The notes under the pieces: generated by a model
Told to the model about the DNA's origin: nothing
Seen by the model: the letters and a program-made list of their open reading frames with translations, nothing else
Database searches by the model: none
DNA from: a virus
Taxonomy: Duplodnaviria > Caudoviricetes
Length of the DNA: 64,000 nucleotides
Virus record (IMG/VR): IMGVR_UViG_2974555739_000001
Coordinates: 16,149-80,148 of that record
Reading direction: 5' to 3' (one strand)
Shown here: positions 58,969 through 61,732 of the stretch, one piece after another
Layout: every line of letters begins with the position of its first letter
Numbering within the stretch: the first letter of the stretch is position 1
Program-made: the position numbers and the translations under genes

Positions 58969-59190
58969 CTAGCACCGGCCCTATAGCTCAAAGGTGGTTT
59001 GCCGTTATGCACTAGTCACCGCTGCTCCCTATAGCTCAAAGGCTAGTTTCCGTTATGGCCCTTACAGCTCAACACCACCGCGCCGCTATACAGCTCGACA
59101 GCACCTTTCCGTTATAGTGCCACACGTCACCAGGGCCACACCGCGGCGCGCCTATACAGCTCGAAGGCCATGTTCCGTTATAGGGGCCAA
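58967..59190 (+). repeat. GC-rich array of four imperfect hairpin repeats (candidate structured ncRNA)
   Basis: CTATA(CA)GCTCRAM-loop-TTTG/TTCCGTTATRG units at about 58981, 59028, 59085 and 59151. Confidence 0.7.
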
Positions 59191-59591
59191 TCACTCGTGC
59201 GCGTAACCTATTATGGGCCACCACCTGAAGCGCTTATAGTGTGTGCTCGCTGTTGCTACTATGTGCGCGGTCTGTTATGCTCCATCTGTTCATACACACT
59301 AACCACCACATAACTTTTAGGCTTTTCAGTTTCCTTTGTATCACATTTTTATTTCTTTCGAATATAAAACTATTCAAAACCATAAAAACCTCTTACAAAG
59401 GATTTTAAACAGTCTGAATGATATTAACCTTTTTGTATGCCATAAAACCATAAAACAAAAAGAGCACCAACATATACACTAGGCTTTTCAAATTCGCTTC
59501 TAAACGATCTTAAAAGCTATTTGATACCTAATATATACATTGGCGCTCTAAACGGTTACAAAGGCATTTAAACGCCTTGTAAGAGACAAAT

Positions 59592-59640
59592 AAAAAAGCA
59601 CCAACACACTAACCATTTTTAAGGTTAATATGTTGGTGCT
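59592..59640 (-). terminator. Terminator of the early operon
   Basis: GCACCAACA..TAACC-loop-GGTTA..TGTTGGTGC followed by TTTTTT on the minus strand. Confidence 0.75.
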
Positions 59641-59647
59641 CGCTTAT

Positions 59648-59767
59648 TTATTGGCACTCTTCGAATTCACTCACGTTTTTGCATTTGTTACACTTTACTT
59701 GAATTTTTCCCTTAAACATTCCCAACAACAAAAGGCGTTTACATATCTTACATCTGAATTGCTTCAT
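59648..59767 (-). CDS. 39-aa Com-family Zn-finger protein (MKQFRCKICKRLLLLGMFKGKIQVKCNKCKNVSEFEECQ)
   Basis: Manual translation; RCxxCxxLL...I.VKCxxCK matches the Mu Com pattern; AAAGGCGG RBS; starts 1 nt after the upstream stop. Confidence 0.75.
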   Translation of the reverse strand: MKQFRCKICKRLLLLGMFKGKIQVKCNKCKNVSEFEECQ

Positions 59768-59768
59768 G

Positions 59769-60395
59769 TTATTGGCCGCCTTTCAAAGCTGATGCCATAA
59801 CATAAGAGCCTTTACCGTTTTCAACTAACTTCTCAACTTTTACAAGTTCTAATGTTTCCGCGTCATAAACTGCATTAACGTAGTCACCGTTTTTCAATTC
59901 ATCATTATACATAACTTGTTCTGATGTGAAATAAACGCCGGTGTTAACGTCTGAGCAATTGTTATAGCAAATTCCGTTATATTCGCCGTTTTCAGCGTTT
60001 GTAATTTGGTATGAGCTAAAAACATATTCATCGTTGTAAGGAACATCGCTTGTATCCGCTGTTTTCTTCTGTTTAAGGTGTTTTACATCTGTTACACCTA
60101 TAAACTTATCTTCACCTTTTAAAACGCGGTATTCAGCTTTTACAATATCGCCGATTTTGACATCTTCATCATTCAGAACATCAGAAGGTTCGAACCCTAG
60201 AAAATCTTTATCAGTTCCTTTTCTAACATTCTTAGCAACAAAAATACCATTGTCTTCTTCTTGGACTTTGAACACTTCATAAGCTAATGGGCTTTTTACC
60301 TCTTCTTCTTTCGTGAAATGGTTAAAACCTAATGTAGCAGTTACACCAACAAGAAAACCTACCGGTAATAATAATTTACGTTTGAATTGTTTCAT
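59769..60395 (-). CDS. Membrane-anchored/secreted protein with two internally repeated domains
   Basis: N-terminal hydrophobic segment; repeats F..S.V..D..(V/L)K.GD.V.A.Y. Confidence 0.6.
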   Translation of the reverse strand: MKQFKRKLLLPVGFLVGVTATLGFNHFTKEEEVKSPLAYEVFKVQEEDNGIFVAKNVRKGTDKDFLGFEPSDVLNDEDVKIGDIVKAEYRVLKGEDKFIGVTDVKHLKQKKTADTSDVPYNDEYVFSSYQITNAENGEYNGICYNNCSDVNTGVYFTSEQVMYNDELKNGDYVNAVYDAETLELVKVEKLVENGKGSYVMASALKGGQ

Positions 60396-60417
60396 AATAA
60401 AATCACTCCTAATATAA

Positions 60418-60471
60418 TTTTAGATGTTTTAAGCATCTATAAAAGCCATATCAAGCGATATGACTTCTAAC
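60418..60471 (-). promoter_or_regulatory. Double-hairpin leader element A
   Basis: 13-bp stem with GCTT loop, then TAGATG/CATCTA stem, then AGGAGTG RBS. Confidence 0.7.
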
Positions 60472-60481
60472 ATACTTAAAG

Positions 60482-60760
60482 TTATCTTGCACCAACATAT
60501 ACATGATAATCACTATTTGGAGCTTTTAAACATTCAATAACGTTTCCGTATCGGTTCAAACTCATTTTTGTAATATCATCTAACGAAAAGCCTTGATGCT
60601 TCAACTCTTCGTCTGCATCTTGAGTCATTTCAAAAGTTCCAAAAAAAGTGAAATCAGGATTTTCTTCTAATTCTTTGATTTCGTTTTCTAACTCTTCTTC
60701 GCTATCTAAATTACAAATACCAACAATACCACATGCACTATTATAAAGTTCTTCATTCAT
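60482..60760 (-). CDS. Acidic early hypothetical protein
   Basis: 92 aa; GGAGTG RBS. Confidence 0.6.
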   Translation of the reverse strand: MNEELYNSACGIVGICNLDSEEELENEIKELEENPDFTFFGTFEMTQDADEELKHQGFSLDDITKMSLNRYGNVIECLKAPNSDYHVYVGAR

Positions 60761-60784
60761 TTTAAAATCACTCCAATTTTTAAA

Positions 60785-60840
60785 TTTTAGATAAATTAAA
60801 TTATCTATAAGAGCTATGAAACAAGTTCATAACTCCTAAC
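60785..60840 (-). promoter_or_regulatory. Double-hairpin leader element B
   Basis: 13-bp stem with CTTGT loop, then TAGATAA-TTTAAT-TTATCTA. Confidence 0.7.
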
Positions 60841-60845
60841 ATAAG

Positions 60846-61157
60846 TTAATTTATTCCCATGTTTTCGCCTATCTCTTCTATTTCCTTGATACTTGTGTAC
60901 GTTTTGCGGAATTGTCTCGCGTCTTCTAAAGTTTTGAATTCTTGAAAGTCTCCAAGTGTTTCAATTTTATTAGTGTTATGATTAAACCATCTTAATGTAT
61001 AAAGTTTATCCATATCCAATTCCATACGTTCACTAGTAATGAAAATGTTTACTTTGTTCGGTTGTGTTTCGATTTGGCTATTGAAAAAATCCATAGCTCC
61101 TTTACTAAACCACATAGGACAAAGTTCTTTCATTTCATTGATAGATAGTTTTTTCAC
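60846..61157 (-). CDS. Early hypothetical protein (WFS..AM.FF...FITSE motif)
   Basis: 103 aa; GTG start; GGAGTG RBS. Confidence 0.6.
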   Translation of the reverse strand: MKKLSINEMKELCPMWFSKGAMDFFNSQIETQPNKVNIFITSERMELDMDKLYTLRWFNHNTNKIETLGDFQEFKTLEDARQFRKTYTSIKEIEEIGENMGIN

Positions 61158-61180
61158 AATAAATCACTCCAATTAGTTTT

Positions 61181-61237
61181 TTTTAAAGGTATTAAAACCT
61201 TTAGAGAAGTTACAAACCGTAGTTCGTAACCTCTAAA
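61181..61237 (-). promoter_or_regulatory. Double-hairpin leader element C
   Basis: 13-bp stem with TACG loop, then TAAAGGT-TTTAAT-ACCTTTA. Confidence 0.7.
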
Positions 61238-61246
61238 AAGCTTTAA

Positions 61247-61552
61247 TTAAGAAATGTAATAATAATGGTTATTTTCTTCGCTGTCTTCTAAAACCATCAC
61301 AAGTGTATGAGCGTTAACTAAGGCGAAATAACTTACTTCCATACCTTCGTACTCTACATAGTTCATAACATTTAACATAGGAACAGTAGAAGAACTATAA
61401 GCGGTAGATACTTCAACTTCGTATCCTTCCATTTCTTCGAACCATTCAGCGATATAACTTTCAATCCCTGTAATTTCGAAGTTGCTCATATCCTTAAAAG
61501 TTTCTTTGAAATCCTGCTCGTTTGAATAATCAGCTTTTACAAATCTTGTCAT
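61247..61552 (-). CDS. Acidic early hypothetical protein
   Basis: 101 aa; GGGAGTG RBS. Confidence 0.6.
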   Translation of the reverse strand: MTRFVKADYSNEQDFKETFKDMSNFEITGIESYIAEWFEEMEGYEVEVSTAYSSSTVPMLNVMNYVEYEGMEVSYFALVNAHTLVMVLEDSEENNHYYYIS

Positions 61553-61578
61553 AATAACAACACTCCCAATTTTTATTG

Positions 61579-61632
61579 TTTAGGTTTACAACCTAATTCA
61601 AAACATCAAACGCTTTTGATATCTTGAGTTAA
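61579..61632 (-). promoter_or_regulatory. Double-hairpin leader element D
   Basis: 13+4-bp stem with AGCG loop, then TAGGTT-GTA-AACCTA. Confidence 0.65.
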
Positions 61633-61704
61633 GCCGCAAAAGCAGCTAGACCGGAGTGAGTGATTTTGTTATTTAATTTTCAAGGATCGGTGTATCTAAT
61701 ACTT

Positions 61705-61732
61705 ATTATAGCAGTTATTTCTTATAAGTCAA
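61705..61732 (-). promoter_or_regulatory. Early sigma-A promoter with 14-bp operator in the spacer
   Basis: TTGACT-N16-TATAAT; operator at 61716-61729. Confidence 0.7.

Follow-up and report, generated by a model that had tools for sequence, protein, structure and literature searches.

A Com-family zinc ribbon gene of a phage ends in a predicted Com-type motif that overlaps the terminator of its own operon

We analyzed by computation a small com-like gene in a window of 64,000 nts (bases 16149-80148 of an 80,148-bp phage genome with terminal repeats) and found that the single bipartite Com-type motif of the whole genome lies at the 3' end of this gene, on the same strand, and overlaps the intrinsic terminator immediately behind it. 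The gene encodes a Com-family zinc ribbon of 39 aa, which may well be an RNA-binding regulator that antagonizes the terminator of its own operon, with no DNA-modification gene involved. We infer that the source phage is the Bacillus megaterium siphophage Stahl (PMC4541283), and its relatives agree with this assignment. The same layout of com-like gene, motif, and terminator was observed in many other loci.

The com-like gene is located on the minus strand (59648..59767), and translation of its ORF gives exactly the 39-aa peptide of the original prediction, with a zinc ribbon formed by Cys6/9/26/29. Its ATG lies 1 nt past the stop codon of a 208-aa gene (59769..60395, minus strand; PF27401, phrog_19941), to which it is translationally coupled. 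The operon has a sigma-A-type promoter (61705..61732, minus strand; TTGACT-16-TATAAT with TG, 11/12 matches) and an intrinsic terminator (59596..59641, minus strand; 19-bp stem plus U-run, fold z of -8.2). As the original prediction had stated, the com-like gene ends this operon: it is the last cistron, and directly behind it comes the terminator instead of a mom-like gene. Searches of the complete genome (80,148 bp) for Mom, N6_N4_Mtase (PF01555), and MethyltransfD12 (PF02086) found none of them. The annotated Slash genome also has no methyltransferase entry.

Slash, Staley, Stills, three Yihwangvirus phages, Bak10, and MaeS each carry a homologue of the com-like gene at this place, and in each it is coupled to the gene before it. 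A DNA-pattern search for further Slashvirus genomes yielded none besides Stills and Staley. Comparison of the Stahl and Stills genes revealed 7 synonymous changes and 1 non-synonymous change (dN/dS 0.02), and a dN/dS of 0.13 was obtained for Stahl and Slash. Judging from these substitution patterns, the com-like ORF is a real gene under purifying selection and no chance ORF. In Staley (L004:3080-3102), one additional A in an A-run causes a frameshift by which the tail is lost after residue 31; the resulting protein has 33 residues and an intact zinc ribbon. This frameshift could be either a sequencing error or a sign that the tail is dispensable.

Com of phage Mu is a translational activator of 62 aa that binds a structured mRNA leader and activates mom translation. 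When the 39-aa protein was compared by BLASTP with the Com sequence of the Mu record, the alignment had 12/30 identical residues over the zinc finger (40%) without gaps, at a pairwise E of 7e-7 and with the same Cys6/9/26/29 spacing. The CxxC-x16-CxxC zinc ribbon is situated at the N-terminus, and none of C6, C9, C26, and C29 varies in a set of 9 relatives or in a set of 23. In the HMM search against the Com family that had been proposed as a check, Pfam Zn_ribbon_Com (PF10122) was indeed the top match (E 6.8e-4), while its score of 19.5 bits stayed under the gathering cut-off of 22.9. The same family was the first match for 9/9 phage relatives and for 13 of the 16 database relatives, some of which exceed the cut-off (P0009: 24.0 bits). 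A single-sequence search of a representative protein library gave 18 matches. The nearest relatives, at 49-61% identity, score above the Pfam cut-off. In addition, phrog_6417 ('translational regulator') was matched at an E of 4.3e-6. An AF2 model of the 39-aa protein has four strands (pLDDT 90.8), and Foldseek with this model retrieved generic zinc ribbons only, plus the Staley protein (UniProt: 'Com family'). No HMM match to the Ogr/Delta zinc-finger late activators (PF04606) was detected at E up to 1, a search of solved structures by sequence returned no Com entry, and NCBIfam has no Com model (Mu Com itself was unmatched). The BLASTP match and the Cys spacing bear out the Com-like identity proposed earlier; by sequence, the 39-aa protein is a Com-family zinc ribbon, the counterpart of the RNA-binding zinc finger of Mu Com minus the disordered tail.

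The Stahl protein differs from Mu Com in lacking this 30-residue disordered tail. The Com zinc-finger domain by itself binds RNA in vitro (PMC6483171), and Com proteins of only 37-39 residues occur naturally (PMC3299994). Equally short Com homologues of Mu-like prophages show the tail to be dispensable in nature (PMC3299994). ComHia (39 aa), FluMu HI1522.1, and Pseudomonas phage B3 ORF47 share the length class and the four-cysteine layout of the Stahl protein (PMC3299994); unlike in Stahl, however, the short Com genes of Mu-like prophages are located directly upstream of a DNA adenine methyltransferase. The Com-like identity is not new, since relatives are already labeled as Com in RefSeq and UniProt: Slash_105, Staley_106, and BCPST gp006 carry the automatic RefSeq name 'gpCom control of modification', and the Stills copy carries no annotation.

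SELEX with a Com zinc finger has yielded two copies of GAG(N)2CC. This is equivalent to a short hairpin with a closing C-G pair whose 6-nt loop carries CC(N)2-3GAG, and the Mu site reads AUGC/CUGCGA/GCAU (PMC6483171). With a bipartite pattern defined directly from the published SELEX (GAG..CC-N1-12-GAG..CC), both strands of the whole genome were scanned, and a single match was obtained in 80,148 bp. It is located at 59635..59659 on the minus strand and reads GAGTGCC-AATAAATAAGC-GAGCACC. The first half-site coincides with com codons 37-39, the stop codon lies within the 11-nt spacer, and the second half-site constitutes the first 7 nt of the terminator 5' strand, i.e., the stem base. This spacing is atypical when compared with the 1-5 nt found in most other loci, and the small hairpin would therefore have a 14-nt loop. 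The only bipartite motif of the genome is thus located at the base of the terminator, which makes this structure the best candidate for a target. The original prediction had viewed the terminator as a sign that a target is missing here, and this view would be reversed by the position of the motif. Moreover, because the motif spans the gene's own stop codon and the terminator foot, the protein probably controls terminator read-through rather than a DNA-modification gene.

To compare other genomes, 49 com-like loci were collected from phage records, viral contigs, two genome contigs, and a sample of 401 genomes of one Firmicutes phylum (21 loci). The zone from 200 nt before to 400 nt after the com stop (29.3 kb in all loci together) contained 19 motifs on the com strand, distributed over 16 loci, versus 0 on the opposite strand; the remainder of the loci (178 kb) contained 10 motifs on the com strand, mostly less than 0.8 kb from com, and 1 on the opposite strand. 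The hairpin form near com also showed this bias (10 on the com strand versus 0 opposite). For 24/30 motifs, the second half-site is the start of a hairpin with a U-run behind it, compared to 17/285 random positions. Four of the six exceptions are motifs of the Mu-like SuMu and L026, whose com-adjacent sites precede a methyltransferase gene and have no terminator, a layout unlike that of Stahl. Many of the motif-positive loci are related, and they amount to approximately 8 independent lineages with the motif and 6 with terminator overlap.

These six are Slashvirus together with MaeS; the L019/L020/L021 group (in order, a promoter with 12/12 matches, the motif, a terminator, and a DUF4355 scaffold gene); L029; L037; L054, beside a tmRNA gene; and a Clostridia-type group, where a sigma-54 activator gene and a thiolase gene flank the com-like gene together with 1-3 tandem motif/terminator units. 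MaeS is syntenic with Stahl and its nearest relative outside the genus; the orthologous position in MaeS reads GAGCGCC-CAC-GAGCGCC, and the small stem shows a C-G to U-A double change between MaeS and Stahl. In L019 (1252-1406; also L020-L023, low-GC viral contigs), the com-like gene is followed by a perfect sigma-A promoter, a terminator-overlapping motif, and the DUF4355 gene, a layout that looks like an attenuator in front of head genes. In the Clostridia-type chromosomal loci L078 and L062 (also L056, L057, L059, L074, L077, and L079), 1-3 tandem GAGAGCC-N-GAGCUCC units occur after the com-like gene, and the second half opens the terminator.

Some loci did not follow this pattern. Yihwangvirus and Bak10 have the com-like gene with no motif nearby. 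No replication came from a first held-out set of 11 viral loci scanned with a strict hairpin rule, in which the com strand and the opposite strand gave 1 match each. Replication was later obtained with the bipartite form and with the Firmicutes genome set, and the motif definitions were refined in the course of the analysis. Rfam contains no family that covers the motif/terminator elements, and a limited literature search found no description of them.

The likely RNA site of the Com-like protein would be GAGUGCC-N11-GAGCACC (59659-59635, minus strand), whose half-sites are predicted to pair into a small Com-type hairpin. This hairpin and the terminator should be mutually exclusive, because the second half-site is at the same time the base of the terminator helix beside the U-tract. 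When the site is occupied by the protein, the helix base could not close; holding of the half-sites would therefore weaken termination. Transcription would then proceed into the conserved non-coding region (59587-59260), and the extended transcript would run through a GC-rich array that has two additional Com-type loops before it enters, in antisense, a convergent 166-aa zinc-finger gene. No promoter or ORF gives this read-through RNA an obvious purpose; its role, as well as RNA binding and the direction of the effect, is what we infer from this layout. The stretch 59260-59587 is highly conserved among the four Slashviruses. It contains inverted CTCTTACAAGG copies at 59567-59585 and 59390-59408, two TGAAAAGCCTA copies at 59318 and 59480, and a second copy of the terminator 3' half at 59462-59475.

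In Mu, binding of Com to a small hairpin undoes an overlapping inhibitory helix. By analogy, binding in Stahl would be expected to undo an overlapping inhibitory RNA helix too. As in Mu, com is a small gene packed against its neighbours, and on the same strand a cognate-type motif is located at its own 3' end or directly beyond it. The differences are that the overlapped helix in Stahl is an intrinsic terminator and not a translation-inhibition structure, that the genome has no mom or methyltransferase gene, that the half-sites are 11 nt apart, and that the gene ends a sigma-A-type operon of a Gram-positive siphophage.

It appears unlikely that the zinc ribbon has a function other than acting on RNA, such as that of a DNA-binding factor or of a partner of the 208-aa protein, with the motif at the terminator being co-inherited. 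The UniProt name implies a DNA-binding factor, the fold search yielded generic zinc ribbons only, and the coupling to the upstream gene has been kept in Slashvirus, Yihwangvirus, Bak10, and MaeS; the N-terminus of the upstream product is hydrophobic and signal- or anchor-like by eye (not by a predictor). However, it is specifically the Com zinc finger that the sequence matches, com-like genes elsewhere are preceded by quite different genes, and the experimentally defined Com motif is more than 100-fold enriched beside com-like genes on their strand only. Family searches with the 208-aa protein returned nothing informative. This protein (59769-60395, minus strand) seemingly contains two copies of a small beta-rich K-x-GD-x-V unit, and its MaeS counterpart has 102 aa, one unit, and a lipoprotein-like appearance.

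It is rather improbable that the protein instead acts as a Mu-like translational activator on another RNA, i.e., on the array loops in a non-coding or antisense transcript or on a host message. The GC-rich direct-repeat array (58969..59240, not assigned to a strand; 57% GC) lies in the path of any read-through transcript. When the hairpin form GC/C-N2-3-GA/GC (slashes marking the loop borders) was scanned with a stem of at least 4 bp, exactly two hairpins were found on the two strands of the Stahl genome taken together, both in the array, on the com strand, and with canonical CC-N3-GAG loops. They are located at 59156..59171 (minus strand; stem AUGGC/GCUGU, loop CUUCGA) and 59032..59045 (minus strand; stem UAGC/GCUA, loop CUUUGA), 482 and 607 nt beyond the com stop, and form on the com strand alone because of G-U pairs. 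Shuffles of the 1 kb downstream of com produced at least one such hairpin in 1.2% of trials, and exactly two have been kept in 4/4 Slashviruses. A predicted Com-type motif adjoins the com-like gene on the same strand in both forms, the bipartite site and these two loop hairpins. On the other hand, there is no downstream ORF or ribosome-binding site on the com strand, shuffled sequence folds at least as well as the array does (z +1.2 to +2.0), and the stem is formed by only 2 of approximately 5 repeat units. The array, which was rejected as an RNA hairpin array on the basis of its folding, looks like DNA-level direct repeats or iterons beside an AT-rich stretch. The original suggestion that it serves as a target is thereby weakened as far as an array of hairpins is concerned, while it gains from the two loops, which are the only ones of the genome. 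A more permissive search of the genome for hairpins with CC(N)2-3GAG was uninformative, since 16 were found versus 18 expected.

The other target originally suggested is the set of four two-hairpin leaders in the com operon itself, and feedback of the protein on them is very improbable. These intercistronic leaders (61553-61635, 61158-61242, 60761-60845, and 60396-60476; minus strand, within 60396..61635) are real and specific to the com operon. Each comprises a 12-14-bp hairpin, a second hairpin of 6-11 bp, an A-rich spacer, and the ribosome-binding site GGAGUG; covariation in the form of double changes was observed in 12/19 pairs, and a covariance model matched only this operon in the four Slashviruses and nowhere else in the 80-kb genome. 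However, the leaders contain neither a GAG(N)2CC pair nor a CC-N2-3-GAG loop, and the model gave no match on the com loci of BCPST, PBC4, pW4, Bak10, and MaeS, all of which keep the com-like gene; Yihwangvirus, Bak10, and MaeS have com loci without the leaders. We rejected the leaders as a Com target on these grounds. Their hairpins rather resemble processing or stabilizer sites of double-strand RNases, which are known between early genes of other phages. A long-range helix in leader A (61553-61673, minus strand), kept in 4/4 Slashviruses, can sequester a ribosome-binding site, which would suit such feedback: the upstream CACUCACUCC can pair with the start region of the first gene, including its ribosome-binding site, and the helix encloses three hairpins.

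Finally, the missing partner gene and the A-run frameshift that trims the Staley tail after residue 31 might suggest that the ORF is spurious or the decaying remnant of a com-mom module that has been lost. This is hardly credible and was already disfavoured in view of the dN/dS of 0.02-0.13, the four cysteines invariant across three genera, and the zinc ribbon that stays whole despite the Staley truncation.

Antagonism of the operon's own terminator by the Com-like protein can be compared with known switches of Gram-positive bacteria, in which LicT/SacY, ANTAR-type EutV, and HutP act as protein-dependent terminator/antiterminator systems. Similar to these, a small RNA element, here predicted to be bound by protein, shares nucleotides with the terminator 5' strand; in contrast to them, the fold (a zinc ribbon of ~35 residues) and the RNA motif are unrelated. 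We refer to two GAG(N)2CC copies, the second of which is the foot of an intrinsic terminator, as the 'Com box'. We tentatively suggest that Com-like ribbons and Com boxes could constitute a widespread, so far undescribed protein-dependent antitermination switch in Firmicutes phages and chromosomes, acting in Stahl on the terminator of its own operon. So far, Com has been treated as a specialized translational switch for the DNA-modification genes of Mu-like phages. Here, the Com finger and its experimentally defined motif recur with no modification gene, and the motif is tied to intrinsic terminators in approximately six independent lineages. If binding is confirmed, a very small (~35 residues) protein-controlled terminator switch would join the known antitermination systems. 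Such a switch, if true, would account for many of the 'gpCom' orphans annotated in Gram-positive phages and would also provide a compact part for synthetic regulation.

Besides these elements, Pistol self-cleaving ribozymes were detected in the com-bearing operons of BCPST, PBC4, and MaeS (L005:627-697, L006:466-536, and L007:1820-1892; 68-73 bits, cut-off 34.5). The window contains no Pistol ribozyme, and the Stahl operon has the two-hairpin leaders instead. MaeS (L007, MT362618) is recorded as a Microcystis phage; its host label looks doubtful. Around its com locus, the genes are ordered as in the Slash-like phages of Bacillus, and a SleB-like gene with the annotation 'lytic transglycosylase' is present as well.
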